A stretch of 60,790 nucleotides of DNA from a virus, in the IMG/VR virus record IMGVR_UViG_3300005253_000580, positions 1 to 60,790 of that record. One strand, written 5' to 3'. The position numbers and the translations under genes are program-made. The notes below the pieces were generated by a model. The model saw only the letters and a list, made by a program, of their open reading frames with translations, searched no databases and was not told where the DNA came from. This document shows positions 122 to 53,821 of this stretch, one piece after another. Each line of letters begins with the position of its first letter. Positions within the stretch are counted from its first letter, which is position 1.

Positions 122-479
122 AGCCACGGCGAGAGGCCCAACGTACTTGCCGCTTTCTACTATGCAGGAAGGCAGAGTAGCTCGCCTTGGAGCCTAGTTT
201 GTAGCCCGTAGCGCCGACTCTCCTAACTCCCCAGGAGCGATTGAGCTGCTCTGAGGTCTTGCGTCCACCACCTCGCCAGCGTGGACCGAAACCTCGCTGG
301 TACCAGCGGCCCGTAGGGTTAGACGGAGAGTTTGCGATAGTCGCCGGCGGATAGGGCGTCAGCTCATTGCGTATCTGCTCAATGATTGCTCGTGACGCTG
401 CGCGGATGGAGGGTTTGTAGTTGCGCCCAAGGGCTTGCTGTAGCCTCCTATCCCCACGAACCTGGATGCTGATAGCCAT
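21..479 (-). CDS. Hypothetical head-module protein (possibly HK97 gp10-like; weak)
   Basis: 152-aa ORF with a 1-nt overlap to the upstream gene and an ATGA overlap across the circular junction. Lies just downstream of the head-morphogenesis gene. No firm motif. Confidence 0.5.
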   Translation of the reverse strand: MAISIQVRGDRRLQQALGRNYKPSIRAASRAIIEQIRNELTPYPPATIANSPSNPTGRWYQRGFGPRWRGGGRKTSEQLNRSWGVRRVGATGYKLGSKASYSAFLHSRKRQVRWASRRGWVTDQTAIDKVVRSGAVQRLVRQSVVGAFKRGR

Positions 480-823
480 TAGCGCACCCGGTCAGGGTAG
501 CGCACGACACTGTTGTTGACCCTCTTCACCTTCACGTTGACCTTGGCGAGCGTTAGGTCCGCATCGTCGAACGCCAGGTCTGGACGGAGGGACGTATCGT
601 GCTTGTCGAGGTAGTAGTCAGCGGTCAGGCCCAGCTTGGCCGCCCATGTCTTAGCGTAGTCCTCACCACCGCCAGACCAGATGACCATCGTGTGACCCTG
701 AGCCTGAAACCAACGGTAGACAGCGATGACCTCGTAGTTGGGCACATCGATATCAAAGCCCGTCGCGGAGGCAGGGATGATGAGGGTGTCATCTACGTCA
801 AAGGCAACGATTAGGTTACCCAT
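479..823 (-). CDS. Small HAD-superfamily phosphatase-like protein
   Basis: N-terminal FDVDDTL matches HAD motif I (DxDxT). 114 aa, same operon. Confidence 0.6.
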   Translation of the reverse strand: MGNLIVAFDVDDTLIIPASATGFDIDVPNYEVIAVYRWFQAQGHTMVIWSGGGEDYAKTWAAKLGLTADYYLDKHDTSLRPDLAFDDADLTLAKVNVKVKRVNNSVVRYPDRVR

Positions 824-835
824 CAGTCACGATCA

Positions 836-1480
836 TCACGCCACCTTCAGCGTCGCATTGCATCTGCACGCCACGTGGGCGGGCGGTCCATCAGGAAATT
901 GATTCTTCCATACCGACTCTGGCTTCCCGTTGAGTGGCCTACAGATATCCGTATCAACCAAGTCATCACCCAGCGTGTGCCATATGCGCTCCATGACGAT
1001 ACCCGCACCACCAAGCTGGCGCTGAGCTATGTTGGTCGCCTCAGCGGACGCCCTCGTCACCTCGGTCACCGCGATAGCTTGTGCACGAGCAGGGCCAAAA
1101 GCTGGCCTTAGTGCCCCCTCCAATTCCCCCCGTGTCATCCCTGGCGTGGTGATGAAGGTCTGGATGGCCCGACTCACCACGTCTCGTGTCGTTGCGGTCA
1201 GGTCCTTCACCAGCCCGAATGTATGGTCTCGTGCCCAGGCAGCCGCCGCCTCATTGATGACTACAGCATCAAGATCAGCACTGACAGCCAGGGCTATGCC
1301 AGACGCTCGCTGCGCAACGTCAGTGAGTTGAGGTACGATGGCGGCGTTGAACATCCTCTCTACTTCATCGAAGCTGAGGATGTCGCCACGGATGATCTTG
1401 TCCGCTATGAGCGTGCCCTGTCGCCCCATCGCTCTAGTCAAGGCGAGACGCAGGGCGTCCTCGTCACGCTCCTGCGACAA
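836..1480 (-). CDS. Head morphogenesis / minor head protein (SPP1 gp7 / Mu F family)
   Basis: C-terminal ICRPLNGK...PPAHVACRCN signature typical of this family. Immediately downstream of portal. Confidence 0.8.
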   Translation of the reverse strand: MSQERDEDALRLALTRAMGRQGTLIADKIIRGDILSFDEVERMFNAAIVPQLTDVAQRASGIALAVSADLDAVVINEAAAAWARDHTFGLVKDLTATTRDVVSRAIQTFITTPGMTRGELEGALRPAFGPARAQAIAVTEVTRASAEATNIAQRQLGGAGIVMERIWHTLGDDLVDTDICRPLNGKPESVWKNQFPDGPPAHVACRCNATLKVA

Positions 1481-2810
1481 GAATGTCCTCCTCAGTCCTA
1501 TGCCCGTTGGTCTCTATCTCAGCGTAGCCAGGCATTGAGTAGGACCGGACTGGCTCCTTCACCAGCGCTGCAGGAATCTCAATGATGTTGGCCGATACTA
1601 GGAACACATCCCCATTGGGGGCAGCTTCAAACCCTAGAGCCTCACGGTATTCATTCCGCGTGAGTGCCCCGTCCTGGAAGCCATCCCTGATAGGAACCAA
1701 TGCCTCCTGCCTATTGATGGCGAGGGCACGGACTTCAGAGGTATCAAACTCAGTGATGATCCGCTCGTCAAACTCCGCTGCGACGTCAGTCTGGTACTGC
1801 TCCTGTAGGTTCCGCCAGAGATTCGACAGGGTAGTCTCGGCGAAGAACCGACGCATACCTGAAACGTTGTTATAGGTCGCAGCATCCAAGCCAGCCTGGA
1901 GTCCCGCAAGAATGGCAGGAACCCCCAAAGCCCCAGCGATCCGTGACTCTGAGACGGTACGGATAGAGGAGAGGTCAAGCTGGCGGGGGTTGAAACCGAT
2001 GGTTGTGATGGTCGTATCCCCATCCACAACGGCTGGAGTACCCAGCATAGCCCCGCCAAACTCCGCACGGAAATGTTCTTTAACCTGTCGTGCGGTCTCC
2101 TGGTTTAGCTTTGCCTTGATACTAAGCACCGTCGTAGGCGCAGCGTAGTTCGCCAGCAATGCCCCCACGAACTTGGTCGCCTCATTGTCTGATGCGATCT
2201 GCCGCGAGAGAACTTCCAGCGGCCCAAGACCCTCTACGATGCCACCCGACTCGCCGGCCGGATCGGGAAGCGTGAATGACACTACGTCCTTACGGGGGAT
2301 AGAGATGATCTGGGCATCCCCAGGCTGCTGGTAGCTGTAGCCCCAAAGTACCCGCTCGCCCGGCTCGTTGGAGTTGGAATAGATAGGCCCTACCCTATCA
2401 GGGCGCAGCGGCCACAGAGCGAGAAGTTGGCCTGTCATGTTGCGCTCTTTCCACCAAACGGATCGGCCCGTAATCCCTAGGTGGAGAGTCGTCAGTGCCC
2501 ACATCCGATACTCAGTCATGAGTTCGTTGGGGTGGCGCATGAGTTCTAGCAGCTTATGCCCCTCTGGCAACTCTTGGCGCTTATCCCCACCATCGAGAAA
2601 GGCTTTCATCGGTGGCTCAGCAACACCATGGGCCAAGAGTCGCAAACAAGCATAGACTACTTCATTCCGCGCATATGCCTGCCGAGCAAGCGGAAGGAAC
2701 TTGGTCTCAATGAGCCATGCCATATTGGCAAGCCATGAGGAGATGAGCGAGATGCCCTGGGTCGGAGTCGCCTTCAACCCATTCCAGAAGCTCTTGAATC
2801 GGTCAATCAT
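1464..2810 (-). CDS. Portal protein (HK97-type family)
   Basis: 448 aa with portal-like core (...FNPRQLDLSSIRTVSESRIAGALGVPAILAGL...). Followed by the gp7-like head protein. Confidence 0.85.
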   Translation of the reverse strand: MIDRFKSFWNGLKATPTQGISLISSWLANMAWLIETKFLPLARQAYARNEVVYACLRLLAHGVAEPPMKAFLDGGDKRQELPEGHKLLELMRHPNELMTEYRMWALTTLHLGITGRSVWWKERNMTGQLLALWPLRPDRVGPIYSNSNEPGERVLWGYSYQQPGDAQIISIPRKDVVSFTLPDPAGESGGIVEGLGPLEVLSRQIASDNEATKFVGALLANYAAPTTVLSIKAKLNQETARQVKEHFRAEFGGAMLGTPAVVDGDTTITTIGFNPRQLDLSSIRTVSESRIAGALGVPAILAGLQAGLDAATYNNVSGMRRFFAETTLSNLWRNLQEQYQTDVAAEFDERIITEFDTSEVRALAINRQEALVPIRDGFQDGALTRNEYREALGFEAAPNGDVFLVSANIIEIPAALVKEPVRSYSMPGYAEIETNGHRTEEDILVAGA

Positions 2811-3858
2811 CGATGTCCCCCCTTTGGATGACCTGCCCCCGCTCGATAATCCTGGAGGCCGTTCGTCCTAACACCACGGCGAGGTCGGTCATACCCGCCG
2901 GACCCCGCAAGGTTCTTACGTTCTCTGGCGTAAACACCTCGCCTACCGTCATGTCCTTTACACAGTGAACGCTGCGCCGATAGCGACGATAGAACGCCTC
3001 ATCAACCGCCTCCACTCTACCGTACATGATGACCTCTGTCTCACGTACCCGTTCCACCATCTCTTTGAACTCGTCGGGCTCTAGGGAGAAGGTAGCATCC
3101 GCCGCACCGTTGGCGCGGGAGCGCGTGAAGTGCTTCTCGATAATGCGGGCCCCGGCGGCTACGGCGAGGGCTGGCACCATAGGGCTCAGGGAATGGTCGC
3201 TGAGGCCCCTCACTACATGGTGTAGCCTATCCTGGTACTGACGATGCACCATATGGAGATTCATGTAGTGCAAGGGGGTGGGATAAGCAGTTACGCAATG
3301 CAAGACTGCTACATGGTCGAGACCAGTTAGGAGAGTAAAGGGGTGCAAACTTGCAAGGATTTCGTCCTCAGTTGCCATCCCTGTGGAGATAATGACGCGC
3401 TTGCCAGTGCGAGCTACGGCCCGAATCAGGTTCAAGTCCGTGATCTCAAAGGAGGCGATCTTGTAGGCCCAGACGTCAAGCATGTACTCCGTGAACATCA
3501 GTGCAGTGGGGTCGTAGATAGAAACAATAAACTCCAAGCCCAGAACCCTCGCCACCTCCTGTAGGGGCTGCGCCCAACTCCACGGCGTCCGTGCCTCAGA
3601 ATATAAGTCCCATAGCGTACGCCCTGCCCAGGGGCCAGAGTGGATCTGGAAGGGCTCTGTATCCATGGGTAGCGTCATCGTCTCGGGGCTGTAGAGCTGG
3701 ATCTTGACTGCATCAGCGCCAGCCTTGGCGGCAGCCTCCACCAGTGCCACGGCTTCGTCATAGCTGCCCCGGTGGTTGCAGGACAGCTCCGCAACAATAA
3801 TCGTTTTATCCGGCCACATTGAAGAGCCCCTTAATCCTAGCGAGTTCCTGGTCATCAT
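2803..3858 (-). CDS. neuB: Nonulosonic acid synthase, NeuB/PseI/LegI family, with C-terminal SAF domain. Likely true start is the ATG at 3819.
   Basis: IVAELSCNHRGSYDEAVALVEAAAKAGADAVKIQ matches the NeuB N-terminal signature. C-terminus VKDMTVGEVFTPENVRTLRG is SAF-like. Confidence 0.85.
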   Translation of the reverse strand: MMTRNSLGLRGSSMWPDKTIIVAELSCNHRGSYDEAVALVEAAAKAGADAVKIQLYSPETMTLPMDTEPFQIHSGPWAGRTLWDLYSEARTPWSWAQPLQEVARVLGLEFIVSIYDPTALMFTEYMLDVWAYKIASFEITDLNLIRAVARTGKRVIISTGMATEDEILASLHPFTLLTGLDHVAVLHCVTAYPTPLHYMNLHMVHRQYQDRLHHVVRGLSDHSLSPMVPALAVAAGARIIEKHFTRSRANGAADATFSLEPDEFKEMVERVRETEVIMYGRVEAVDEAFYRRYRRSVHCVKDMTVGEVFTPENVRTLRGPAGMTDLAVVLGRTASRIIERGQVIQRGDIDD

Positions 3859-4474
3859 CTAATGCCTCTGTACTCTTGGCCACATCCTCCACCTCTATGA
3901 TGGGCCGCGACTCATCAAATCCGTACTGCCATCGTGTCCTCACCAGGTTGAAAGTGTAGAACAAGTCCTCGCTCTCCACCTCGACCTCGATGCCCCGGCC
4001 CATCGCCATACCCAGCCAGAACTCCAGACAGGCACGGGCCGAGAGTGGCTCGCCCACTGGATGCAGTGTAACACCACAGAGCCTGATATGGGTCACCCCC
4101 TCCAGAATCGCATGGGCCACGAGCCAATCGAAGGTTCCACAGTGGTAGCGCCCATTGGGTAGCTCCTCCTCGATCCGCTTCTTCGGGAACTCCACACTGC
4201 CAGGAAATTCAGGGTAGTGGCGCTGCATGTATAGAGGGGTGCTGCCATCGTATTTCCAATGATTTAACCATGTGTCCTTGCTGACAGCATCCCAATAGGG
4301 CCAGTGCTCTTCCAGATACTCGGCTGAGTGAAGCTGATACCAGCGATCAGCATCCCAGGGGCCGAATGTGGACAAGGGATCATTGATACCCCATATTTCG
4401 TAGCCCGCTCTTCGGGCCTCGCGCCATGTCTTGAAGCCCTTACCAAACCCTACGATGGCAACCTTCCTAGTCAC
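3806..4474 (-). CDS. Rossmann-type transferase-like protein, paralog A. Architecture resembles CMP-nonulosonate transferases (CstII / DUF115-Maf-like); assignment tentative.
   Basis: KVAIVGFG ... EIWGIND ... RWYQLH ... GTFDWLVAHAILEGVTHIRLCGV aligns block by block with ORF 52065..53036. The block order resembles VIIAGNGPS / CNQ / ...GIDFY of sialyltransferase-like enzymes. Adjacent to the NeuB-family gene. Confidence 0.45.
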   Translation of the reverse strand: MTRKVAIVGFGKGFKTWREARRAGYEIWGINDPLSTFGPWDADRWYQLHSAEYLEEHWPYWDAVSKDTWLNHWKYDGSTPLYMQRHYPEFPGSVEFPKKRIEEELPNGRYHCGTFDWLVAHAILEGVTHIRLCGVTLHPVGEPLSARACLEFWLGMAMGRGIEVEVESEDLFYTFNLVRTRWQYGFDESRPIIEVEDVAKSTEALDDDQELARIKGLFNVAG

Positions 4475-4649
4475 GACTCACCACCCCTTTGCCCTTGCAC
4501 ATTGGGCAGCGCTCCTCGCCCGGGTCTTGGTCTTCCAGCGCATCGAATAGCTGAGTGATCGGGTCCACCAGCTTGGCCCAGATGTTCGTCTTTGGCTTTC
4601 GTCGCACACCGACTCCATGACAGACCGGACAGCGTCTAGTCATTCTCAA
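4467..4649 (-). CDS. Small zinc-finger protein with two DnaJ-type CxxCxGxG motifs
   Basis: CPVCHGVG and CPMCKGKG in 60 aa. Overlaps both neighbours (8 and 14 nt). Confidence 0.5.
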   Translation of the reverse strand: MRMTRRCPVCHGVGVRRKPKTNIWAKLVDPITQLFDALEDQDPGEERCPMCKGKGVVSRD

Positions 4650-5499
4650 AGATCCATAGCCTGGTCTGACCTAAGTCAGGGTAGTGAATCTCACTAGGGA
4701 TGGTGAATGCAAGGTGATTGACTGGTGCTTCGTAGTCCGGCTCCCGCCCCTCCTGCTGAGCAAGAAGAGCATTCACAACACGGGAGAGAAAGTAATATGT
4801 CCCCGTAAACCCGACTGTCACGTAATTGGGCAGTTTCTCCTCCAGCACGGCCGTGCATAGTTCTTCTGCTCGTAGGTACCGGGTATGGCTTGGCGGTACA
4901 ATCTCTGGTAGACCCACCCACTTCCGCATCCGGTTCAATCCATTGAGTCCGTCCTGCGACGACTCCACCATCACGTACTTCTTGCCCAGGGAGATGAGGT
5001 GCTGGATGGCCCGAAGCTGCGTCGGCCAGTCTGGCAGGTTGATGATGCAGCGCTCGGTGTAGACGGCATCGTACTCCGCACCCTTCCAGTCAAAGAGATC
5101 AGAGCAACCATATCGAACCGAACCGAGCGCACTAGACGAAAGCCGCTGGAGGTTACTCAGCATATCGGTGGAAAAGTCCACGGCGTCTATCACCATAGAG
5201 TACCGCTCAGCCAGATACCGCGCCGTCTCGCCATCACCGCAACCCATGTCCAGTACCCGCTTGGCACCCTGTAGCCTTCTGGCGATCTCACGCATCTCCA
5301 GTTCCTTCAGCACGCGATCCCGCGTCCCCGCATACTCGCCGAGGGAGGCGCGGTCATCCCAGAAGGCTTGCATATCTACAGCCATGTCAAGATTACCCAG
5401 AAGAACAATAATGCGCACACGACAGCTTCCCACGCTACAAAGACGCGCAGCCAATGCTCCCAGCCCAGATGGCCTCCTTGGCTTTGCCAGCTTGTCCAT
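4636..5499 (-). CDS. Class I SAM-dependent methyltransferase. Start uncertain: alternative ATGs at 5385 and 5373.
   Basis: VLDMGCGDGETARYLAE matches SAM-binding motif I. Confidence 0.7.
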   Translation of the reverse strand: MDKLAKPRRPSGLGALAARLCSVGSCRVRIIVLLGNLDMAVDMQAFWDDRASLGEYAGTRDRVLKELEMREIARRLQGAKRVLDMGCGDGETARYLAERYSMVIDAVDFSTDMLSNLQRLSSSALGSVRYGCSDLFDWKGAEYDAVYTERCIINLPDWPTQLRAIQHLISLGKKYVMVESSQDGLNGLNRMRKWVGLPEIVPPSHTRYLRAEELCTAVLEEKLPNYVTVGFTGTYYFLSRVVNALLAQQEGREPDYEAPVNHLAFTIPSEIHYPDLGQTRLWIFEND

Positions 5500-5569
5500 G
5501 GATCAGGTGGCGTCTCTAGCGTTCCCGTGTCCGTCCAAGGTGGTGGTGCTGGTGGCGGACCTGGGGTCT

Positions 5570-5941
5570 TCATGCTAGCCCCTCCAAGCTCAAGGCATCG
5601 AATGCTGCGTTGACCTCCTGCATCTTCTTCTCAGTGCCCCCTAGGTCAGGATGGTGACGCCGAGCAGCCTCACGATAGGCCGTGCGAATTTCAGTTGGTG
5701 AAGCCGTAGCGGTTGTGATGCCAAGCACTTTGAATGCCCGTTGTGCACGATGGCTAAGATGCAGCACCGTTGGTGCTGGGCGGCTAGCAGGTCGCTCACC
5801 GTACCAACCCCACTCCACTCGTAAGCGCCGAATCATCTCAGCAGTAAGTATGGGATCAACCCGCCACGCATTTGGATCCAGAACGTCACCCTCAAACTCA
5901 AACTCCCACTCTATCCGTATCTTGGGGCCATCGGGATTCAT
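5570..5941 (-). CDS. J-domain (DnaJ-like co-chaperone) protein
   Basis: C-terminal TEIRTAYREAARRHHPDLGG...MQEVNAAFDAL with the HPD tripeptide. Confidence 0.75.
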   Translation of the reverse strand: MNPDGPKIRIEWEFEFEGDVLDPNAWRVDPILTAEMIRRLRVEWGWYGERPASRPAPTVLHLSHRAQRAFKVLGITTATASPTEIRTAYREAARRHHPDLGGTEKKMQEVNAAFDALSLEGLA

Positions 5942-6570
5942 TCTATCATCCTCACAACCTCGAACGCCTCAGCGTACTCCACCCCCACCACGGCACCCCA
6001 GTATTGCGCTCGTGCTTCCAAGGCTCGGAAGGACCGGGGATGGGGAAAGGGGCGCATCTCGCTCTCATAGCACCGTAAGCCAGCTACCTTCTCTTGCCAA
6101 TACTGTGACACGTCCACGAACCGAGCGGGCCGGAACGAGTAGTCAAAGGCCCACTCGGTAGAAGATAGCACCTCAAAACTGTAGAGCGCTTGGAGAGGGT
6201 CCGCATAGCCAGGTCGCGTAGCTGTGAGTACCGCCTCGAACACTGCGCGGTGGTCTACATTCAGGTCGCTTCGGTGGTGGGTGTAGACGATGTGCGGCTC
6301 ATGAGCTTTTATCCATGCCTCGACTGCATGGATAATCCGTATCAACGGCACTGTATCCATCTGGTTATCAGGAAAGAGGTCGCCAACAAAGACAGGACTG
6401 AAGCCAAGCGCCCCTGCCGCTCTTACTGCACCCTCCACCTGCTGCCCGCCCTCTCGCCCTCTACCCAGGTATAGCACACTCACGCTCTCCCCCTCGGCGA
6501 TGTGCCGAGCGATGGTGCCACCCATGCCGAGAATCTCGTCGTCAGGATGAGCGCAGACCACACCGATCAT
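5938..6570 (-). CDS. PIG-L / LmbE-family N-acetyl-sugar deacetylase
   Basis: N-terminal VVCAHPDDEILGMGG matches the AHPDD(E) PIG-L signature. Confidence 0.8.
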   Translation of the reverse strand: MIGVVCAHPDDEILGMGGTIARHIAEGESVSVLYLGRGREGGQQVEGAVRAAGALGFSPVFVGDLFPDNQMDTVPLIRIIHAVEAWIKAHEPHIVYTHHRSDLNVDHRAVFEAVLTATRPGYADPLQALYSFEVLSSTEWAFDYSFRPARFVDVSQYWQEKVAGLRCYESEMRPFPHPRSFRALEARAQYWGAVVGVEYAEAFEVVRMIE

Positions 6571-6692
6571 TGGCCCTCCGCCTTTTCCATCTCAACTATG
6601 ATCTCGACATGCTCAGGGTCTTCAGTGTAACGGTGGCTTGCTTCCTCGAATGCCTGCCACAGGATTGTCAGCGTCGTCTTGATTTCCGTCAT
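6567..6692 (-). CDS. Hypothetical 41-aa protein (below the ORF-track cutoff)
   Basis: Hand translation gives MTEIKTTLTILWQAFEEASHRYTEDPEHVEIIVEMEKAEGQ. It exactly fills the gap, with an ATGA overlap onto the PIG-L start. Confidence 0.35.
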   Translation of the reverse strand: MTEIKTTLTILWQAFEEASHRYTEDPEHVEIIVEMEKAEGQ

Positions 6693-6693
6693 C

Positions 6694-6921
6694 TTACGTT
6701 GATCTATTGACATTTTTCACCTCCCACCCCTTCACCCTGAAAGCTCGCGCTATGTCGAAGTGCAACTCCACCTCCCCCTCAACCTCCGGCATCTCGGCCA
6801 TGACACGGAACTGATTAGGAACAGAGCCGCGCTGGACATCGAGAATCCGGCTCCCCTCTGGCGCGTTGAGAAGGCCAAGGAGGAAATTATACGAGACCTG
6901 GAAATTTATACGGCCCATCAC
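6694..6921 (-). CDS. Hypothetical protein
   Basis: 75-aa ORF with a 4-nt overlap to the upstream gene, in-operon. Confidence 0.5.
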   Translation of the reverse strand: MMGRINFQVSYNFLLGLLNAPEGSRILDVQRGSVPNQFRVMAEMPEVEGEVELHFDIARAFRVKGWEVKNVNRST

Positions 6922-7586
6922 CTCACCTCCGTTATCGTCACGTCCGCCTCGATCCTCCCCGTCTTCAGCGAGGCACGCGAGAACTCCAAACGGTAGCCAT
7001 TGACCTCTATGAACGCTTTGGGGTAGCCCTCCGCGTCCAGCATACGGATGAAGTCATGGAGTCCTTCCATGTCCAACTCTATGGGCAGCCAGCTCTGATC
7101 AGGTGTACGACGCTTGAACGTCACTACCTCGCCCACCTGCGATACCGACTCAGGCTCCGTAGCCGCTATCTCCTGGGCCATGTCGATGCACAGGTGTGCG
7201 GCGCGCAGATAGACCTCCTCAGCCGTGCCGTACAGGGCCAGGGGACGCTCCATGTAGATGGGCCCGGCATCCACCACCTGGGTCATCCGGTGCGCGGTAA
7301 TGACCGTCTCCGTCGCGCCTAGCATGATGAGGTTCTGCAGGGGAGAACCGCCGCGACCATAGGGCAAATCAGTTAGATGAAAGTTCACGGCCTCGTACCG
7401 CTCCGTAATCTCGGCGGAAACCCATTTTGAATAATGAATAAAGAATATGTAGCGCGGCACCATTAGCGGTAGCCAGTCCTTTGCCAACTCACCCGAATGG
7501 AAGTGCCAGTTGCTTGGGAGGTGTGCACGCTCAAAAGCATACTGTCCCCAGGGACGGTCACTGACGACGAGGTAATTGCTTCGCAC
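6918..7586 (-). CDS. Formyltransferase-like protein (Fmt N-terminal domain family)
   Basis: NFHLTDLPYGRGGSPLQN matches the H-x-(S/T)-x-LP-x-x-RG formyltransferase motif. The ORF is open to 7631, but a GTG at 7586 sits in a TAGTG overlap with the upstream small ORF. That start gives an N-terminus (VRSNYLVVSDRPWG) collinear with the duplicated fragment MKHYAVVSDRPWG. Confidence 0.7.
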   Translation of the reverse strand: MRSNYLVVSDRPWGQYAFERAHLPSNWHFHSGELAKDWLPLMVPRYIFFIHYSKWVSAEITERYEAVNFHLTDLPYGRGGSPLQNLIMLGATETVITAHRMTQVVDAGPIYMERPLALYGTAEEVYLRAAHLCIDMAQEIAATEPESVSQVGEVVTFKRRTPDQSWLPIELDMEGLHDFIRMLDAEGYPKAFIEVNGYRLEFSRASLKTGRIEADVTITEVR

Positions 7587-7753
7587 TATGTAAGCATCAG
7601 GGCATAGGCATAGACGAGGAGAGCGATCCAAAGACCCATAACGACCCCCGCCAATGCACCGTCCAGGTAGGCTTTATGCTCCCGCTCGGTCTCATATCCC
7701 CCTTCAACCCAGGCGGGTACCATTCTTTCGCCCTGTGTATCTAGTCTACTCAT
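7586..7753 (-). CDS. Hypothetical 55-aa protein with C-terminal TM helix
   Basis: Hand translation gives MSRLDTQGERMVPAWVEGGYETEREHKAYLDGALAGVVMGLWIALLVYAYALMLT. 1-nt overlaps at both ends. Confidence 0.4.
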   Translation of the reverse strand: MSRLDTQGERMVPAWVEGGYETEREHKAYLDGALAGVVMGLWIALLVYAYALMLT

Positions 7754-7899
7754 CACACGTCCTCCGCTTCGAACTCATCGAATGGGCAAATCTCTTCGTC
7801 TTCATATTCTACGCCGACAGGGTGGCGTTCAGATTGCCTCGCCCGCTCAAAGGCGTAGCGCCCCCAGGGTCGGTCGCTGACGACAGCATAGTGTTTCAT
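7753..7899 (-). pseudogene. Duplicated N-terminal fragment of the formyltransferase-like gene (48-aa ORF)
   Basis: MKHYAVVSDRPWGRYAFERAR... versus ...NYLVVSDRPWGQYAFERAH... in 6918..7586. The nucleotide match is also visible (gtcgtcag[c/t]gaccg[a/t]ccctgggg). ATGA overlap with the HNH gene stop. Confidence 0.45.
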
Positions 7900-8381
7900 G
7901 GAGCCACCGTCCGTTTGTAGTAAGCCCGACGCTGTATCCCTCGCGCCTTCTCAAGATTCCTCTTCCGCCAGCCTCTTCCCTGTTCATTCTTGCATATCTG
8001 ACACCACCGTCGCCCCTCTTCTACTTGATATGCATGCCCTCTTTGGCAATACTCGCGACGCGCATTAAGGGCTGCCGGCCCCATACCTCGAAGTATATTC
8101 TCTCTGTCCGATACTGCCTCCAAGTGAGAAGGGTTGACGCAAGCATGATTGCGACACAGATGATCTATGGTCAATCCGATGGGGATTGGTGACTTGAAAT
8201 ACGCATAGGCAAAGCGATGGACAAACTCTGCCCCCCTAGTATTATCTGTTCGACTCCCAACTGTGAATTGAGCATAGCCTTTATTGGTTATCGTGCCTTG
8301 CCAATTCCAACACTGCGTTATCACGTCAATCTCTACACACTTCCAGAACCGAATTATTAGGGGCGCCGCTATTCTAGACAT
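7896..8381 (-). CDS. HNH homing endonuclease (type A: DHLC..CVNPSHLE)
   Basis: LTIDHLCRNHACVNPSHLEAVSDRENILRG plus a C-terminal CQRGH...CQIC zinc module. GC is visibly lower than the neighbours. Confidence 0.8.
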   Translation of the reverse strand: MSRIAAPLIIRFWKCVEIDVITQCWNWQGTITNKGYAQFTVGSRTDNTRGAEFVHRFAYAYFKSPIPIGLTIDHLCRNHACVNPSHLEAVSDRENILRGMGPAALNARREYCQRGHAYQVEEGRRWCQICKNEQGRGWRKRNLEKARGIQRRAYYKRTVAP

Positions 8382-8628
8382 CAGATAACGCCCAGTCCAT
8401 GAACAGCCCAGCCTGAAACCGTGGGTTGTCCGCTTGCAGCACCTCGCAGACCGCGTTGATCGCCTCTAGGCGCCTACCGTCCACCATCGGGATCTTCTGA
8501 AGTGCGCGGGCAAAGTGGCGGTAGTTGTAGCGGCGCTCTTCTAGGGCTTCCATTAGCCTACCGTTGGTTCGTTGCAAGCTGTCACGCTCAGCTTCCAGGC
8601 TGGAGATAACTTTCTGTGAATCAATCAT
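8374..8628 (-). CDS. Hypothetical coiled-coil protein (start taken at the ATG at 8628)
   Basis: MIDSQKVISSLEAERDSLQ...; the ATG at 8628 makes an ATGA overlap with the stop of ORF 8625..8813. Confidence 0.5.
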   Translation of the reverse strand: MIDSQKVISSLEAERDSLQRTNGRLMEALEERRYNYRHFARALQKIPMVDGRRLEAINAVCEVLQADNPRFQAGLFMDWALSDV

Positions 8629-8813
8629 CTCGCCTCTATAGGTGGTGGTGGAGAGCCGTAATATATAGTGGCCCGCTGCCCGATGCCGAATACCCTCCCA
8701 CACCGAGCGCAATAGTCCTCTACCGTCTCCGTCCAGGCATTGACGGGCATCGGTTCGCGAGCGATCACGCGCTCTTGCAAGTCATGCAACCTCAGACTAC
8801 ATAGCAACGGCAT
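8625..8813 (-). CDS. Hypothetical protein
   Basis: 62-aa ORF, ATGA-coupled to the downstream gene. Confidence 0.45.
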   Translation of the reverse strand: MPLLCSLRLHDLQERVIAREPMPVNAWTETVEDYCARCGRVFGIGQRATIYYGSPPPPIEAR

Positions 8814-8872
8814 ACCTCACCTCCTCACTTAGCACCTTATCTATAGATGTTTTCTTGAAGAACCACATGGCC

Positions 8873-10096
8873 TCATCTCTCCTCGAACAGCACTCGCGGT
8901 AGCCGCTCCCGCATCACTTCCTTGACGTCAATCTTCTGCATCTCAGTCCACACCTCGCCAGCAGCTTCGGTAGTCAGCCTCACATCCTCGGCCATGTGTG
9001 CCAGATTAGGAAGAATGGGGCGGTTCATGAGGATGCCCCGGTCACGCATGCCCACGATAAAATAGGCCCGCTCCTCTGGGCTGTCGAACTGGATGAGTGA
9101 GCGTGGACCATGACCAATAACTCGATAACCATGAATCTGACATAGGCGTAGACCTTCCATGAGATCATTCCCCATCTCCCAAAGATGCCACACTCCCCAC
9201 TGATCCCAGATGTCCAGCACAGCGTCCGCTGCCGCCAGGGATAGGGCGTTGCCGAAGTGGGTGGAGGAGACGAACACCGGATCGTTGCGCTCGAACCACT
9301 CGAAGTATGCCCTGTGTCCCACGATGGCCGAGATAGGCACACCGTTGCCCAGTGCCTTGCCATAGCACACGATGTCGGGCTTGATGCCGTAGACCTCAGA
9401 GGCACCGCCCAGCGCCCAGCGAAAACCGGTCACCACCTCGTCCATGATCAGGAGAGCGCCCGTCTTGTCACAGATGTGGCGCACGTACTCGTAGTAGTTG
9501 GGCTCAGGGTCAACCATCGGGTGCTCCAAGATGATGGCAGCCGGGGCATCATCTGGCTTCACAACCACGGCCAACTCCACGAGCTGCTGCTTGTCATTGA
9601 ACGGAAGGTCCACGACATTCTGCGGGGCTACCCCCCACGCTGGCGGGGTCTTGCCGATGGACCAGTCTGCCCAGCCCGAGTAGCCCGACGAGAGGACACG
9701 CTGTCGCCCCGTTACCGCCCGCGCCAAGCGCACAGCCATGGTGGTAGCGTCCGTGCCGCTGAGCCCGAAGCGTACACCAAGGGTGTCCGGTGACCAACCC
9801 GGAACATGGGTACCAAGGAGGTTGGCCAGCTTCTCGGCGACCCGTGCTTCTAGGACATGAGGGAGGGAGAAGCCAATGCCCTCGAATGCTTGATCGGCGA
9901 GGCGGCAGCAGAAATCTACATTAGCGTAACCAAGCAGGTTCGCACCCAGTCCCGATACCCAGTCCAGGTACCTGTTGCCAGCACGGTCATAAACGTGCGC
10001 TCCCACACCCCACGCCAGTTCCTTGGGCTCAAAGTCCACGCCCCAGAAGACGGGCGATTTCGAGAAGGTGGCGGCGATGGGGAGAGGCTTAGGCAT
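8873..10096 (-). CDS. Class-III (HemL/GSA-aminomutase-like) PLP-dependent aminotransferase
   Basis: GLSGTDATTMAVRLAR, LIMDEVVTGFR, and the PLP-lysine context CYGKALGNG. The ATG at 10096 is preceded by GGAGGA. The ORF is open to 10180. Confidence 0.8.
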   Translation of the reverse strand: MPKPLPIAATFSKSPVFWGVDFEPKELAWGVGAHVYDRAGNRYLDWVSGLGANLLGYANVDFCCRLADQAFEGIGFSLPHVLEARVAEKLANLLGTHVPGWSPDTLGVRFGLSGTDATTMAVRLARAVTGRQRVLSSGYSGWADWSIGKTPPAWGVAPQNVVDLPFNDKQQLVELAVVVKPDDAPAAIILEHPMVDPEPNYYEYVRHICDKTGALLIMDEVVTGFRWALGGASEVYGIKPDIVCYGKALGNGVPISAIVGHRAYFEWFERNDPVFVSSTHFGNALSLAAADAVLDIWDQWGVWHLWEMGNDLMEGLRLCQIHGYRVIGHGPRSLIQFDSPEERAYFIVGMRDRGILMNRPILPNLAHMAEDVRLTTEAAGEVWTEMQKIDVKEVMRERLPRVLFEER

Positions 10097-10233
10097 TAGG
10101 TTCCTCCACCATCTATAACCCAGCCGATCAAGAGCAAAACTAAGCCACATGCAGCCGAACCTATCAACACCACCCACCATATAAGCGAAAGTATAGTGAG
10201 AACGTTGAGGAGAGATTCGAGTAGCACTTCCAT
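10096..10233 (-). CDS. Hypothetical 45-aa hydrophobic (TM) micro-protein
   Basis: Hand translation gives MEVLLESLLNVLTILSLIWWVVLIGSAACGLVLLLIGWVIDGGGT. 1-nt overlaps with both flanking sugar genes. Confidence 0.4.
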   Translation of the reverse strand: MEVLLESLLNVLTILSLIWWVVLIGSAACGLVLLLIGWVIDGGGT

Positions 10234-10895
10234 CACGCCCTCACCACTCCCAGCACACTGAGCCACCCGAAGTCCTCACCCAGCGCTGCATAGACGCCAC
10301 GCACATACTCCATATCCTCCTCAGTATCCACTGACCACTTCAGCGCCGAGAGGTCATCGGCGTGCTGAAGGTGCCCGCTCTTGTAGGTCTTGCGTAGCCA
10401 CGTCGTGACGTGCTCCCGGTCCTTCTGCGCCGTCTTACGGTCTGCTTGGCGTAGTGCCTCGATGGTGAAGGCCTCCACATCGAGGCCATCAGGGTAAGTG
10501 CGGGGGTCCACGTTGTTGAGGTAGGGCGCGTTGAGCGCCGCATGAGCCGCCACTACTTCGTCAATCAATCCTGGGTCAATCAGGGGGCAGTCAGCCGTGA
10601 TCCGCACGATGACGGTAGCTCCCGTTATCGTCGCCACGTCCGCGTAGCGCCCCAGCACATCCCCCTCAAAGTGACCACCGCGTAGAACGCTGATATCATT
10701 GGCTTGGCAGAAGCGCACGATCTGCTGGTCGGCCCCTGAGAACGAGGTGGCCACCACCACTGAACCAACTAACTCCGCCCGCTTCACCCGCTCGTAGACA
10801 CGCTGAAGCATGGGCTTGCCGCAGACATCCTGGAGCACTTTGCCGGGTAGGCGGGACGATCCCATACGGGCTTGGATGATGGCGACTGTGTTCAC
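10233..10895 (-). CDS. Cytidylyltransferase, SpsF/PseF-like (CMP-nonulosonate synthetase family). GTG start.
   Basis: IIQARMGSSRLPGKVL is the N-terminal signature of this family. Confidence 0.8.
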   Translation of the reverse strand: MNTVAIIQARMGSSRLPGKVLQDVCGKPMLQRVYERVKRAELVGSVVVATSFSGADQQIVRFCQANDISVLRGGHFEGDVLGRYADVATITGATVIVRITADCPLIDPGLIDEVVAAHAALNAPYLNNVDPRTYPDGLDVEAFTIEALRQADRKTAQKDREHVTTWLRKTYKSGHLQHADDLSALKWSVDTEEDMEYVRGVYAALGEDFGWLSVLGVVRA

Positions 10896-12349: not shown

Positions 12350-12562
12350 TCACCATGCCTGCTGGCCCTCCGCGGACGTTACTGAAGCATTACCCTCAGT
12401 GACTGCTACCCTCCACCCCTCTTCTTCGTCCTTAACAACCACCCAGCGCCAGCCCAACCCTGCGCTCGTGAGTGCATCTGCCACATCCCCGGCACAGAAG
12501 GAGCAGCGCCCGTCCACTACCGCTATAGCCGTTGCCACAGCCTCTGCTTCCCAATTCGTCAT
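12350..12562 (-). CDS. Hypothetical protein
   Basis: 70-aa ORF whose ATG is in an ATGA overlap with the TerL stop. Confidence 0.45.
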   Translation of the reverse strand: MTNWEAEAVATAIAVVDGRCSFCAGDVADALTSAGLGWRWVVVKDEEEGWRVAVTEGNASVTSAEGQQAW

Positions 12563-14067
12563 GGTGCCATTCTCTCCATCAACTCTATCTCGCTCCGTTC
12601 ACGCCGTCCCGTTGGCTCCAGCCACCAGTCGGGAATAGCCGAGCCCTGGAGTAGCAGGAGTGCCATAGTGGTGGTGTCCACCCAGTCGTCGTGGTCTGCG
12701 CTGGGGAACTCCAGGTGCTCAGCCTTCCACTCCTGAAGCCACGGGGCCTCCGGCGGGAGCCACACACGCATCGAGGCGAATATGTCCGTCACGGCATGGG
12801 CACGGGCCAGCTTGCCTCGCTCCTCTTTCCACCCTTGCACCTGGAGACCCTGGCTCTGCATCTGCTGCACCAGGCTGATCCCGCTAGCCTTATACTCCAC
12901 CCAGGTCCTATTGGGTTTGATTCGCTCTATGTGCCGTTCTACGAGATGCTTCAGATCGGGGAAGCCTACCTTCCAGCGCCCAGCGTCCAGCAGGTAGAGG
13001 TTGATTCCGCGACGCCCCCACGTGGCGGTAGCGGACCAATCGGCCTCCTGCCCCTCCTCGAAGGCTGTGTCCCAGACGGTGATGATGTCCTCCAGTATCT
13101 CCCGCGAGAATACCTCTGGAGGTAGAGGCACCATCTCCTCTGCCAGCGCTCGCCGCTCCTCCTCAGTGGGCACCCGCCAGGACTGCCACCACTCACCCCT
13201 GAATACATTACCCTCTTCCTCTCCAATATCACCCTGATAGACGCGGCGGAAGGTAAGGGGTGCCAGTGTCTGCTCACGCTGGAGGCGCTCAATAGACCAT
13301 CGCTCAGGCCATAGGGCAGTGCCGTCGTCCTGGATCGCCTTCTGGTGGATGAGAGTCCATTCCCTCTGGAGAAGATGGGCGGCGAGGTCACCGGAGTGCC
13401 AGCGCGTCATGATACAGACGGCTACGCCCTTGTCTGTGAGTCGGGTCAGCGCCACACGGTCCACCTTCTCTATGATCTTCTCGCGCTGATACCGAGTAGC
13501 CGTGTTCTCCAGGTCGTTCACGTCGTCGAGGATAAGCACATCAGCGCGGGGACCAGCAGGAAGCTCGGCGATTCCATAGGCTGAGAAGCTGGGGTGGGGG
13601 TCGGCTATATTGGGCCTCTTGAGATACCAAGCATGACCCGCCGTGCCACGACGGTCATCCAGCTCAACACCGGGAAAGGCATCGTGGAATTCAGCGCTAT
13701 CCCTGATAGTGTCCCTAACCGCCAGGCTCTTGGCAACCGCTAGGCCAGCAGCGCTGGACAGGTAGATAATATGAAGGCTAGGGTCTTGCCCCAGTAGCCA
13801 CGCAGGCCAGTGAACGCCAACCCACTGCGTCTTCGCGTAGCCAGGAGGGGCAATGATCAGCAATGGGTTATCAGGACTCACCTCAGCAAGCGCCTCTAGC
13901 CACACCTTATGGTGTATGGCGGGCGGGAGACCGTGAACAATGCGACCATAGTCGCCAAGGGTGGGCGGGGGAGGCGGCACTACGGTAGCCTTTGCCTCCT
14001 GAATACGCCGTACTACTTCAGTCAGTGCTGGGGTAAAATCCGCAGGACCATGAAGGAGCTGGTTCAC
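12559..14067 (-). CDS. terL: Terminase large subunit
   Basis: Walker-A-like IIAPPGYAKT, Walker-B-like VLILDDVND, and a C-terminal nuclease-like region. 4-nt overlap with TerS. Confidence 0.85.
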   Translation of the reverse strand: MNQLLHGPADFTPALTEVVRRIQEAKATVVPPPPPTLGDYGRIVHGLPPAIHHKVWLEALAEVSPDNPLLIIAPPGYAKTQWVGVHWPAWLLGQDPSLHIIYLSSAAGLAVAKSLAVRDTIRDSAEFHDAFPGVELDDRRGTAGHAWYLKRPNIADPHPSFSAYGIAELPAGPRADVLILDDVNDLENTATRYQREKIIEKVDRVALTRLTDKGVAVCIMTRWHSGDLAAHLLQREWTLIHQKAIQDDGTALWPERWSIERLQREQTLAPLTFRRVYQGDIGEEEGNVFRGEWWQSWRVPTEEERRALAEEMVPLPPEVFSREILEDIITVWDTAFEEGQEADWSATATWGRRGINLYLLDAGRWKVGFPDLKHLVERHIERIKPNRTWVEYKASGISLVQQMQSQGLQVQGWKEERGKLARAHAVTDIFASMRVWLPPEAPWLQEWKAEHLEFPSADHDDWVDTTTMALLLLQGSAIPDWWLEPTGRRERSEIELMERMAP

Positions 14068-16507: not shown

Positions 16508-16715
16508 CAGCCCTCTTCCGCTCCCTGTACGCTTTGTCCCTACAGGACACAGAGCAGTACCTGCGCGTAGCGAGGCCGAGTATGACCGCGCCGCACACAA
16601 CGCACTCACCCTCTACCCGTGGCCTCATGGCAGCGAGAGCGCGGGCAGCGTCAGTAGCGTTAGTCATAAGCCAGGCCCAGGGCCATTCTCCCAGGGACAC
16701 CGATGGTTGGCCCAC
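16500..16715 (-). CDS. Small zinc-ribbon protein
   Basis: CVVCG...YCSVSCRDKAYRERKR. Confidence 0.5.
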   Translation of the reverse strand: MGQPSVSLGEWPWAWLMTNATDAARALAAMRPRVEGECVVCGAVILGLATRRYCSVSCRDKAYRERKRADA

Positions 16716-52064: not shown

Positions 52065-53036
52065 TCACTGCGGCTTCGGCCCGTTCCCAACAATGATGTC
52101 TTGAGGCGGCACCCATATCTTCTTGATGTGCTGCGTATCCTGAATAGCCCCTCGGTACTGGTCTCGCGCCCCCGTCAGATTGGCAATCTGCTGATCAAGC
52201 TCATTGAGTTTCTGTTGAAGTTCGGTCTCACGAGCCTGGAGCTTCTGCTGGAATGCTGATTGCGCGATGCTCTGGTAGCCGTACAAGAACGCTGCCTTGA
52301 GGAGATCCGACTGTGCTGGGATGGTGACTTTGATACCCATGCCCCTTGCATAGCCGATGTAGTATTCGCAGCTAGGGCGCTGGCTTTGATATTCTGTATC
52401 ATGGGCCATATCCACTCCGAACACCCCGATCTCCTCAAACCCTTCCATCATCGCCAGAGCGATCATGTACGAGATGCTGTTCGTGAGGTATGGCTGCTCA
52501 GGATCGCCATAGCGGTGGATGATCTCGGTCAGTGGGTAGACCACCGATTGCGGGATATCCTCCCAGTGCTGCTGCATGTACACTGGCACGGTCATGGCCT
52601 GGAGCTTCTGAATGTGTTCGTGGGTACGGCCTTTGTCCGCCTCATAGATTTCTCTTCGGTGTAACTCGAACCAGCGAGTCCAGCGCGGGATGAGCATGTA
52701 GAGCTCATTGAGCCCCCATATCTCCCACTCAGGATCATCGAAGGGTGCGAGTTTCCACGACTCCGTAAAGCCCAGGACGGCCACCTTCGTGAGCTTCTTG
52801 GGTTCCGCGATAGGCGGCGGCTCCGTTCCCAGGAGCAACGCCTGGGACATCCCCGTTCGCGCTGGCTCAATTCCCACCCCTGCATCAATCGTGATCATGC
52901 CCTCTGACGCGCTCACTGTTACGTCTGTGCCTGTCGGCATCTCGCCTACCATTCTAATTTCCTCCTGCGCCTCTAGGGCGTCTTGAAACTCACCTAGATG
53001 ACGTTCGTACCCGTCGATTGAGCAAGAACAGTCCAT
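52065..53036 (-). CDS. Rossmann-type transferase-like protein, paralog B of 3806..4474, with a C-terminal coiled coil. Start may be the ATG at 52952.
   Basis: KVAVLGFT...EIWGLNE...RWFELH...NSISYMIALAMMEGFEEIGVFGVDMA...YARGMGIKV aligns with paralog A. Confidence 0.45.
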   Translation of the reverse strand: MDCSCSIDGYERHLGEFQDALEAQEEIRMVGEMPTGTDVTVSASEGMITIDAGVGIEPARTGMSQALLLGTEPPPIAEPKKLTKVAVLGFTESWKLAPFDDPEWEIWGLNELYMLIPRWTRWFELHRREIYEADKGRTHEHIQKLQAMTVPVYMQQHWEDIPQSVVYPLTEIIHRYGDPEQPYLTNSISYMIALAMMEGFEEIGVFGVDMAHDTEYQSQRPSCEYYIGYARGMGIKVTIPAQSDLLKAAFLYGYQSIAQSAFQQKLQARETELQQKLNELDQQIANLTGARDQYRGAIQDTQHIKKIWVPPQDIIVGNGPKPQ

Positions 53037-53821
53037 CTGGTGCTATTCAGCCCAATCAAATGAATCCATCCCGGTGCAGCGGCTAGACCAGTCGTGAAGG
53101 CGATGTGCGTGCTGCCAGCCGTAGTGAAGTCAGCCCCCGCCGAGCTTGAGGTGATCGTCACCGTCGCGGCAGTCGAGACAACAGATATCCACTTCACCAC
53201 ACCAGCAACCGGGGCATTAAGATCCACCGTCAGCGCAGTGGCTGCATAGATGGTGCTAATGCCATAGGCCGTCATTTCCGTCGTGCCGCCGCTCGTTATT
53301 GCCTCGACATACTGCTGATAGCCAGTGTTAGCAAGGATGCGTTGGCCTGAGATGGCACCACCAGCACCACCAGTGGTAGTGACGCTATCAAAGGTTCCTG
53401 CACCCGTGGAGGTCACCGCCGCGCCAGTGATAGTGCCCGTGGAGGTGACGGCATTGAATGTGCCGAGCCCCGTGGAAGTCACCGCGTTGAACGTGCCCGT
53501 TCCGGTGCTGGTGACGGCATCGAATTTAGCCGCGACCCCCGACCCTGTGGATGTGTAGCTGGCGCCAGTGCTTACGAAGCCGCCAACAGCATCAACTTCG
53601 CCCGTGGTGTTGATGTCTCCACCAATAAACCCACCTGCCGTACTGAGGTCGATAGTACCGCCGGTGGTAATGAGTTCTGAACCACCTACCTTGAGTACAC
53701 CACCCGACTCGATGTCGATCTCTCCGCCCGATTCAACGTCAGCAGAACCAGAGGAGGCGATGACGAAGCGGTCGCCACCTCTCTCCCGATAGGTACCCGG
53801 CTGGTACGTATTGTCTGCCAT
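52994..53821 (-). CDS. Gly/Ser/Thr-rich repeat protein in the head module (decoration/fibre candidate)
   Basis: Five 11-aa repeats: FDAVTSTGTGT, FNAVTSTGLGT, FNAVTSTGTIT, GAAVTSTGAGT, FDSVTTTGGAG (about 53365-53530). Lies two genes downstream of the MCP. Confidence 0.6.
   Translation of the reverse strand: MADNTYQPGTYRERGGDRFVIASSGSADVESGGEIDIESGGVLKVGGSELITTGGTIDLSTAGGFIGGDINTTGEVDAVGGFVSTGASYTSTGSGVAAKFDAVTSTGTGTFNAVTSTGLGTFNAVTSTGTITGAAVTSTGAGTFDSVTTTGGAGGAISGQRILANTGYQQYVEAITSGGTTEMTAYGISTIYAATALTVDLNAPVAGVVKWISVVSTAATVTITSSSAGADFTTAGSTHIAFTTGLAAAPGWIHLIGLNSTRWTVLAQSTGTNVI

Follow-up and report, generated by a model that had tools for sequence, protein, structure and literature searches.

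Why should a tailed phage carry genes for a sialic-acid-like sugar among those that build its head? The question is raised by IMG/VR record IMGVR_UViG_3300005253_000580, a 60,790-base contig from the Loki's Castle marine-sediment metagenome (PRJNA259156, JGI 3300005663; one protein deposited as LCGC14_0313360), in which genes of a pseudaminic acid (Pse)-type nonulosonate pathway occupy a gap of 9.75 kb between the genes for the large terminase subunit (TerL) and the portal protein. The whole of this contig is referred to below as the window. Nonulosonic acids cap the surfaces of bacterial and animal cells, where they carry charge and modulate immunity, and in the canonical pathway PseB, PseC, PseH, PseG, PseI and PseF make CMP (cytidine monophosphate)-pseudaminic acid, used for flagellin O-glycosylation in, for example, Campylobacter, Helicobacter and Aeromonas. 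The window very probably codes for steps in making and activating a Pse-type nonulosonate, together with nonulosonate-transferase-like enzymes. On balance, we favor a model in which these enzymes would O-glycosylate head-decoration proteins with a tailored Pse on the virion.

The sugar genes are co-oriented, and most of their junctions are overlaps of 1–8 nucleotides (Table 1). An initial annotation of the sequence had described a pseudaminic-type gene set spliced into the morphogenesis operon on the late strand, with overlaps of this size and a gap of about 9.7 kb, and this description is borne out: the open reading frames (ORFs) that it named are present on the minus strand at the positions it gave, and profile searches (Pfam, NCBIfam) placed every one in the family proposed, the HAD matches being weak. 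The Pfam searches covered all ORFs of at least 85 amino acids except three plus-strand ORFs overlapping cluster genes. The PseB homolog passes its equivalog cut-off, matches Polysacc_synt_2 at 1e-92 and contains the catalytic motifs (TGGSGSFG, SSDK and YGATK). The synthase scores 324.3 bits against the PseI model TIGR03586 (cut-off 340.25) versus 212.9 bits against NeuB_NnaB. The best PDB match of the cytidylyltransferase, over its full length, is 6oew, named 'cytidylyltransferase' (5e-27), and its homologs adjoin the aminotransferase gene in three other phage loci (L010, L017 and L096; loci used for comparison carry the prefix L); as judged from its sequence, this SpsF-type enzyme may have PseF-equivalent function. 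The aminotransferase reaches 2e2 bits on NF004856, below the cut-off, is 63% identical to the copies in L010 and L096, and has GSAM and sugar C-6' aminotransferases as its PDB neighbors. The formyltransferase-like protein matches 1zgh (3.8e-53), whose family comprises truncated formyltransferase-like proteins, and the ArnA formyltransferase domain (6e-12), and it keeps the catalytic N-x-H...D residues (VNFH, VVDAG). Homologs of methyltransferase 1 are found in L010 (35% identity) and L096, and those of methyltransferase 2 adjoin PseB in L010 (39% identity) and L096 (50%), both genes being conserved in the cassettes defined below as type B.

Two further genes encode putative nonulosonate transferases that resemble the GT42 enzyme CstII, type 1 in the sugar block and type 2 in the head module. 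The initial annotation had called the first of these transferase-like, and that gene stands, but its GT42-like identity and its head-module paralog had been missed. The two paralogs are 27% identical (blastp), and type 2 has a long C-terminal coiled coil. Searched as a single sequence, type 1 has no match in Pfam, PHROG, NCBIfam or the PDB sequences. AlphaFold2 models built from family alignments (predicted local distance difference test 82 for type 1 and 84.7 for type 2) were compared with the PDB by Foldseek; CstII is the top match for type 1 (probability 0.99), and the top 13 matches for type 2 are all CstII or Cst-I (E 3.7e-6 to 1.2e-4, probability 1.00), the next lying at 1.6e-2. Searches of PDB sequences with family hidden Markov models (HMMs) likewise return CMP-sialic-acid transferases in all of the top nine places (CstII at E 1.2e-4), and the aligned stretches take in 'KVaIvG' at the N-terminal end, the strand 'EiWGlN' and the motif 'A.AI.eGf.eI.lyGvD'. 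Neighbors in BFVD include Caudovirales proteins that are uncharacterised (E 1.7e-14) and, as weak matches, MptE-like/DUF115 proteins (probability 0.87–0.91, E 0.02–0.05). Both types are predicted to share the CstII-type fold, a single Rossmann-like GT-A variant.

The family to which the two proteins belong is large and stands in a phage setting in every context examined. It comprises at least 5,331 representative clusters (50% identity, E ≤1e-3) among 1.84 billion proteins, is without curated annotation, and is matched by a single search pattern in at least 247 IMG/VR contigs; the 21 metagenomic homologs of type 1 are all in phage contexts. Four members (P0155, P0174, P0253 and P0267; 506–620 amino acids) carry a canonical intein (Cys...SHN) directly after an invariant Glu-Tyr, a site that corresponds to residues 215–216 of the 323-residue ORF at 52065–53036. 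Inteins typically sit at catalytic sites, and the invariant residues of the family together with these insertions therefore argue that its members are enzymes. The only deposited phage record with a family member is Microcystis phage Mvi-Yong1342-1 (PP496355, L104; positions 8908–9711, 40% identity). That gene lies just upstream of TerS, TerL and portal and is annotated as a 'type 11 methyltransferase', which looks like a misannotation; the phage is a possible experimental system.

Two genomic associations connect this family to nonulosonates and to head proteins. PseI/NeuB, PseB or cytidylyltransferase genes lie within 10 kb of the GT42-like gene in 22 of 80 IMG/VR loci, and a type-1 homolog directly abuts PseF in 10 further phage loci. 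By comparison, a PseI query finds no more than three weak matches in the 50,697 deposited phage records, one of them a Moritella bacterial contig, and PHROGs hold no family for PseI. The second association is with proteins rich in serine and threonine. Downstream of the major capsid protein (MCP) gene, the window encodes in order a 150-residue and a 275-residue Ser/Thr-rich protein, the type-2 enzyme, a 127-residue ORF and the head-tail adaptor, so that one transferase gene stands within the structural operon, between the MCP/Ser/Thr-rich ORFs and the adaptor, and the other near the portal gene. The 275-residue protein contains 11-residue 'AVTSTGxGTFN' repeats, with a 33-bp repeat present 2.7 times at 53436–53525, and has a homolog at the same position in L077; a homolog of the 150-residue protein follows the MCP gene in L010. 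The serine plus threonine (S+T) fraction of background ORFs averages 0.14. When type-2 loci were collapsed at 80% identity, the ORF directly upstream of the type-2 gene had a fraction of at least 0.22 in 27 of 40 non-redundant loci, compared with 15% of background ORFs (binomial p 1e-13, Mann-Whitney p 4e-10). Ser/Thr-rich proteins following the MCP hold a position typical of head decoration or fiber proteins. The virion glycosylation suggested by the initial annotation is now backed by two GT42-like transferases and by Ser/Thr-rich head proteins.

Table 1. Features of the window in and around the sugar genes and the head module (positions in the 60,790-base contig).
Feature	Position	Strand	Supporting match or property
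PseB, UDP-GlcNAc inverting 4,6-dehydratase	59513..60472	-	TIGR03589, 417.6 bits (cut-off 407.75)
PseI-like nonulosonate synthase (NeuB family + SAF domain)	2803..3858	-	NeuB PF03102 7.7e-66; SAF 4.6e-6
SpsF-type cytidylyltransferase, candidate CMP-nonulosonate synthetase	10233..10895	-	CTP_transf_3 1.4e-26
Class-III (HemL-like) pyridoxal phosphate aminotransferase, candidate C4 aminotransferase or tailoring enzyme	8873..10096	-	Aminotran_3 7e-34
Formyltransferase-like (Fmt-like) N-acyl transferase, 1zgh family	6918..7586	-	Formyl_trans_C_2 5.5e-25
PIG-L/LmbE-type N-deacetylase	5938..6570	-	PIG-L 6e-22; AHPDD motif
S-adenosylmethionine (SAM)-dependent methyltransferase 1	4636..5418	-	Methyltransf_25 6e-11; 260 residues by gene callers
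SAM-dependent methyltransferase 2	57728..58387	-	Methyltransf_11/25 7e-6
Minimal HAD-type phosphatase-like protein, 114 residues	479..823	-	HAD, HAD_PNKP ~2e-3 (below cut-off); DxDxT motif FDVDDTL
GT42 (CstII)-like putative nonulosonate transferase, type 1	3806..4474	-	Predicted fold, family HMM; 53-nucleotide overlap with PseI
GT42 (CstII)-like putative nonulosonate transferase, type 2, head module	52065..52952	-	Predicted fold; longest ORF to 53036 (323 residues)
Ser/Thr/Gly-rich 275-residue protein, candidate O-glycosylation acceptor/head fiber	52994..53821	-	S+T 0.28
Ser/Thr-rich 150-residue head-module protein, candidate acceptor	53906..54358	-	S+T 0.26; phrog_5707, unknown function
HK97-type major capsid protein	54386..55735	-	Phage_capsid 4e-45
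TerL, large terminase subunit, upstream boundary of sugar block	12559..14067	-	Terminase_6C 7e-9
Portal protein, downstream boundary of sugar block	1464..2810	-	Phage_portal 7e-56
MuF-like head morphogenesis protein	836..1480	-	Phage_Mu_F 1.5e-6; portal fusion in L010
HNH homing-type endonuclease, within sugar block	7896..8381	-	HNH_3 5e-11
J-domain protein inside cluster	5570..5941	-	DnaJ 3e-9
ORFan membrane protein, two predicted transmembrane helices, between PseB and methyltransferase 2	58466..59338	-	No family or PDB match

Comparison with related loci shows that phages carry such cassettes in two forms. Type A (7 loci, such as L022, L037 and L066) comprises PseB, DegT, GNAT, HisF-like, canonical PseF and PseI genes. 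The rarer type B, represented by the window, L010/L015, L017, L096/L097 and L098/L099, comprises PseB, two methyltransferases, an SpsF-like cytidylyltransferase, Aminotran_3 and PseI, usually with a Gfo/Idh/MocA oxidoreductase as well. Type A phages resemble the window in the order of their PseB, GT42-like, cytidylyltransferase and PseI genes, and several have a second GT42-like gene ~4–5 kb downstream; they differ in having the DegT, GNAT, HisF-like and canonical PseF genes where the window has Aminotran_3 and an SpsF-like gene. In one type A locus, L022, a DpdA-like gene (16807–17541, plus strand; 1.9e-36), belonging to the 7-deazaguanine DNA-modification transglycosylases, directly follows the Pse cassette; nonulosonate-linked DNA hypermodification, raised by this neighbor of PseI, was considered, and nothing in the window supports it.

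The relatives also bear on how the window acquired its gene order. TerL and portal are adjacent in L077, L010 and L096, so the view of the initial annotation that the sugar genes are spliced in is correct. The portal and MCP of L010/L015 are 50% and 42% identical to those of the window. L077, with a portal 46%, an MCP 47% and a type-2 transferase 64% identical, has TerL, portal, MuF, protease, MCP, a Ser/Thr-rich protein and type 2 without sugar genes between them. In L010/L015 and L096/L097 (Hainich groundwater) the type-B cassette is undivided and lies upstream of the genes for both terminase subunits, small and large. Only in the window is it split: one part separates TerL from portal, and PseB with a methyltransferase is found between the neck and protease genes. 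Judged by these gene orders, the split arrangement is derived, because the relatives carry the cassette as one block together with terminase-portal adjacency. Within the sugar block, the HNH_3 gene stands between the aminotransferase and the Fmt-like gene; further HNH-type genes are found at 31262–31825 and 23242–24078 (both plus strand), one of them with NUMOD4 and HNH_3 domains. Speculatively, HNH endonucleases may be linked to rearrangement or mobility of the cassette.

Which steps of the pathway does the window lack? The initial annotation regarded the pathway as near-complete, which overstates the case, as Pfam searches and six-frame phmmer searches with bacterial and phage reference proteins, covering every frame, recovered no homolog of DegT/PseC, GNAT/PseH or GT28/PseG. 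For PseC, there is no DegT_DnrJ_EryC1 match in Pfam and phmmer finds nothing with DegT queries from bacteria and phages; for PseH, no acetyltransferase is matched in the scanned ORFs and phmmer with PseH/GNAT queries is negative; for PseG, there is no Glyco_tran_28_C match and phmmer with the PseG domain of the bacterial locus L008 is negative, a search of limited sensitivity for a divergent PseG. Several small ORFs of the sugar block (11614–12069, 11256–11600, 10957–11244, 8374–8712 and 6694–6921) were considered as the missing PseH or PseG and have no match to such a family; the sole family match among them is that of 11256–11600 to a PHROG 'membrane protein'. The initial annotation had also placed PseB and a second methylase across the circular junction. 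Both are confirmed, and the intervening ORF at 58466–59455 is an ORFan and not a sugar enzyme; considered for its place beside PseB, it was rejected as a divergent PseG or PseC on account of its two transmembrane helices and lack of homologs. The protein encoded at 58466–59338 finds only itself among 5.8 billion proteins, and it may be a moron with a role in, for example, superinfection exclusion. This gene lies in a stretch of lower GC (guanine plus cytosine) content, 0.51–0.52 over 57000–60000.

The class-III aminotransferase may replace PseC, although the evidence from gene content points both ways. In its favor, Aminotran_3 and DegT are mutually exclusive across the PseB-containing phage cassettes, DegT occurring in the seven type A loci, Aminotran_3 in the five type-B entries listed above, and the two never together. 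A tailoring role is suggested instead by two bacterial contexts. Aeromonas flagellin glycosylation islands have a class-III aminotransferase alongside pseBCFGHI, pseC included, and in the group I islands it is one of the accessory genes, together with those for a HAD hydrolase, a methyltransferase and a deacetylase, a set that the window shares (PMC7874193); Legionella O-antigen loci have a HemL-like gene between PseG and a cytidylyltransferase (PMC3694923). A contig scan with the aminotransferase alignment, whose patterns were too phage-specific, returned no bacterial cluster with the same pair of class-III aminotransferase and SpsF-type genes, and for bacteria the evidence on this pair comes from papers only.

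The Fmt-like and PIG-L proteins had been proposed as substitutes for PseH and PseG, and here the bacterial relatives argue otherwise. The Fmt-like family has more than 7,800 matches, with proteins ~50–55% identical in cyanobacteria, Verrucomicrobia and Chloroflexi. Bacterial locus L008 (GCA_002347265, contig DDYB01000014), whose Fmt-like and PIG-L proteins are 53% and 45% identical to those of the window, has the order PseB, PseC (DegT), PseF, PseG/PseH fusion, Fmt-like, PIG-L, PseI. A PIG-L gene adjoins the Fmt-like gene or lies close to it in L006 as well as L008, and in Thalassoporum the pair adjoins a GT28_C gene. Thus, L008 resembles the window in having the pair near PseI, but it also has PseC, PseF and the PseG/PseH fusion, set among O-antigen-type GT2 and ABC transporter genes. 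Because the pair accompanies PseC and PseG/PseH in bacterial clusters, the two proteins look like add-on tailoring enzymes and not replacements for PseH and PseG. The most economical reading of the pair would be removal of an N-acetyl group followed by re-acylation with a formyl or other group. Pse5Ac7Fo is a known natural variant (PMC11040635).

From these family and fold assignments, gene orders, conservation and associations, we infer a donor, a product, an acceptor and a location on the virion as follows. PseB would convert UDP-GlcNAc to the UDP-4-keto-6-deoxy intermediate, and the 4-amino group would be added probably by the class-III aminotransferase, or else by a host PseC. N-acetylation (the PseH step) and release of UDP (the PseG step) would be supplied by the host or by unrecognised ORFs. 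The PseI-like synthase would then condense the hexose with phosphoenolpyruvate, and the SpsF-type cytidylyltransferase would make the CMP-nonulosonate. PIG-L and Fmt-like proteins would replace an N-acetyl group by formyl or another acyl group, and the two methyltransferases and the small HAD protein may tailor the sugar further. Finally, the two GT42-like enzymes would pass the nonulosonate from its CMP-sugar to Ser/Thr-rich head proteins. Speculatively, the two may serve separate acceptors, or one may make the initial transfer and the other extend it, by analogy with the bifunctional CstII. As a more tentative generalization, it is possible that the large GT42-like family lets tailed phages O-glycosylate Ser/Thr-rich head-decoration proteins with bacterial sialic-acid-like sugars, which many of these phages make themselves, the phage studied here using a class-III-aminotransferase route.

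A number of observations weigh against this model. The synthase falls 16 bits short of the PseI equivalog cut-off, and the cytidylyltransferase scores only 32 bits against the PseF equivalog TIGR03584, for which the cut-off is 205.7. Without PseC, PseH and PseG, the phage may be unable to complete the pathway by itself. Assignment to GT42 is based on fold and weak similarity (12–16% identity to CstII): neither window protein matches Pfam CST-I (PF06002), only 2 of 102 family members do (E 3e-3), and neither reaches the threshold of MAF_flag10 (PF01973). The invariant H, E, R and N residues of the family are at best candidate counterparts of His188, Tyr156 and Tyr162 of CstII. About three quarters of the family-bearing loci have no sugar genes in the fetched 10-kb flanks, and in L096 the cassette has no type-1 transferase at the corresponding place. 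Phage fibers commonly include Ser/Thr-rich proteins, so that adjacency does not prove that enzyme and substrate are paired. Finally, the phage is uncultured, and the model is a prediction from its sequence.

The cassette could instead remodel the host surface (flagellin, pili, lipopolysaccharide or capsule), for instance against superinfection or receptor use, with the GT42-like enzymes acting on host acceptors. We consider this unlikely, although it is not without merit, as all characterised Pse transferases act on cellular glycoconjugates, the type-1 transferase lies in the sugar cassette and not beside a structural protein, and the absence of PseC, PseH and PseG implies a host that already makes Pse. 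Prophage genes are also reported to modify the nonulosonates of the Acinetobacter capsule (PMC12053666, PMC6586298). Such a role fits poorly with genes that are embedded among the late head genes, co-oriented with them and joined by overlapping stops and starts, with the retention of type 2 between the MCP/Ser/Thr-rich ORFs and the head-tail adaptor in many phages, and with the absence of an integrase from the Pfam-scanned ORFs. It is improbable, too, that the cassette is an auxiliary-metabolic booster of host Pse flux and that the GT42-like proteins either act in structure or assembly, as Rossmann-like factors, or are transferases using another donor. The incomplete pathway, the low identity to CstII, the lack of curated annotation for the family and the many loci without nearby sugar genes would all be accommodated by such a role; however, the top structural and profile matches are exclusively CMP-sialic-acid transferases, the family is strongly enriched near PseI, PseF and PseB, and inteins at an invariant motif are typical of catalytic sites.

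The product itself might be another nonulosonate or a 6-deoxy-amino sugar derivative, made by the class-III aminotransferase and SpsF-type route. A type-B core present in at least four phage lineages, always without DegT and GNAT, would agree with this, as would the sub-threshold PseI, the non-PseF cytidylyltransferase and the class-III enzymes that, from their PDB names, aminate sugar aldehydes in aminoglycoside pathways. We regard it as quite improbable, given that PseB passes its equivalog threshold, that the synthase fits the PseI model much better than the NeuB model, and that the Fmt-like/PIG-L pair comes from canonical Pse clusters. A phage/bacterial assembly chimera might be suspected where 9.7 kb of bacterial-type genes part TerL from portal in a genome without a close cultured relative, yet it is extremely improbable. 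The order TerL, sugar genes, portal, MuF, HAD, PseB, capsid gene recurs in both a JGI and an ENA MEGAHIT contig; its portal-to-PseB part is also covered by a Logan contig from another run, the two runs belonging to PRJNA259156. The first and last 121 bases of the window are identical, and because of this direct repeat the genome is a complete phage genome of 60,669 bp, either a circle or a terminally redundant unit; the 4-nucleotide overlap of the genes at 21–479 and 60469–60693 spans the circular junction. GC content is even across the sugar block (0.55–0.60), and related phages from other sites carry homologous cassettes beside homologous portal and MCP genes. Because three assemblies agree, the terminal repeat closes the genome and GC is even, a chimeric assembly is effectively excluded. 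Virion glycosylation with a tailored Pse remains the reading that we favor.

How does the proposed system compare with those already known? It resembles the canonical Pse pathway in its PseB equivalog, PseI-like synthase, CTP_transf_3 enzyme and Ser/Thr-rich presumed acceptors. It differs in lacking PseC, PseH and PseG, in having an SpsF-type enzyme in place of PseF and GT42-like transferases in place of Maf or FlmG, and in being phage-encoded within a head operon, with a virion protein and not flagellin as its presumed acceptor. With CstII and Cst-I of Campylobacter jejuni, the GT42-like family shares a predicted fold and the N-terminal 'KVaIvG', 'N' and 'A.AI.lGf.eI.l.G.D' motifs, and the gene neighborhood implies a CMP-nonulosonate donor; unlike those enzymes, the window proteins fall below the Pfam CST-I thresholds and would act on protein and not lipooligosaccharide. 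Virion glycosylation is known in Che8-type mycobacteriophages (Freeman et al. 2023, cited in PMC12619734), whose structural operon reportedly also holds glycosyltransferase genes and whose capsid or tail proteins are modified. In contrast, the window has genes of its own for making and activating a nonulosonate, and its transferases have another predicted fold. The mycobacteriophages reportedly use ordinary hexose-type glycosyltransferases and host nucleotide sugars. A literature search of incomplete coverage found neither a phage Pse cassette coupled to head-module GT42-like transferases nor this family, and a prior description is possible; pseI is listed as a marine phage auxiliary gene in a table of one review (PMC6359870).

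The window has no near DNA match among the 50,697 deposited phage records, and IMG/VR scans with the single proteins TerL and portal found nothing. Annotated TerL genes are matched by tblastn at 27–30% identity, the best being DSL-LC04 and Pelagibacter phage HTVC023P (~29%), which are too distant to be usable for synteny arguments. No intrinsic terminators above chance were detected inside the sugar block, and the promoter and terminator scan was uninformative. Also inside the cluster, a 58–60-residue protein at 4467–4643 (minus strand) has two DnaJ-type CxxCxGxG zinc-finger motifs; together with the J-domain protein at 5570–5941, it looks like a split DnaJ co-chaperone. A 677-residue DNA methylase (14576–16609, minus strand; N6_N4_Mtase 1e-34) lies on the late strand immediately upstream of the small terminase-like gene. 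The M23 peptidase at 32877–33650 (minus strand, 4e-25) is a likely endolysin and implies a peptidoglycan-bearing bacterial host. On the plus strand are a DUF5131 protein (31818–32699, 2e-75) and an ORF at 19931–20746 with a long run of ~20 hexapeptide-like repeats (ASVWDSV / GASVGASV...) and no family match. The tail region encodes an 819-residue fiber or spike (38469–40928, minus strand) with a C-terminal Peptidase_S74 'chaperone of endosialidase' domain (8e-8). A further tail-region protein (42125–43450, minus strand) has weak matches to BNR/Sortilin-Vps10 repeats and to the F510_1955 glycosylhydrolase (7e-8, below cut-off), and by its sequence it could be a sialidase-like beta-propeller, which would fit a nonulosonate-displaying host.

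Phage virion glycosylation has reportedly been demonstrated only recently, in mycobacteriophages and with ordinary sugars. If the model is true, it would extend to sialic-acid-like sugars, and a function would be provided for several thousand unannotated proteins from phage contexts; should the wider reading of the family hold as well, environmental phages would commonly have 'pseudaminylated' virions, a feature not described so far. From the model one would expect a new class of GT42 enzymes that act on proteins and would be of use in glycoengineering, and the type-B cassette provides a possible substitute for the DegT step in Pse synthesis that can be put to the test. The model also suggests that the surface chemistry of the capsid, including charge, particle adsorption, resistance to proteases and grazing, and recognition by host defences, may be under selection in sediments and groundwater.

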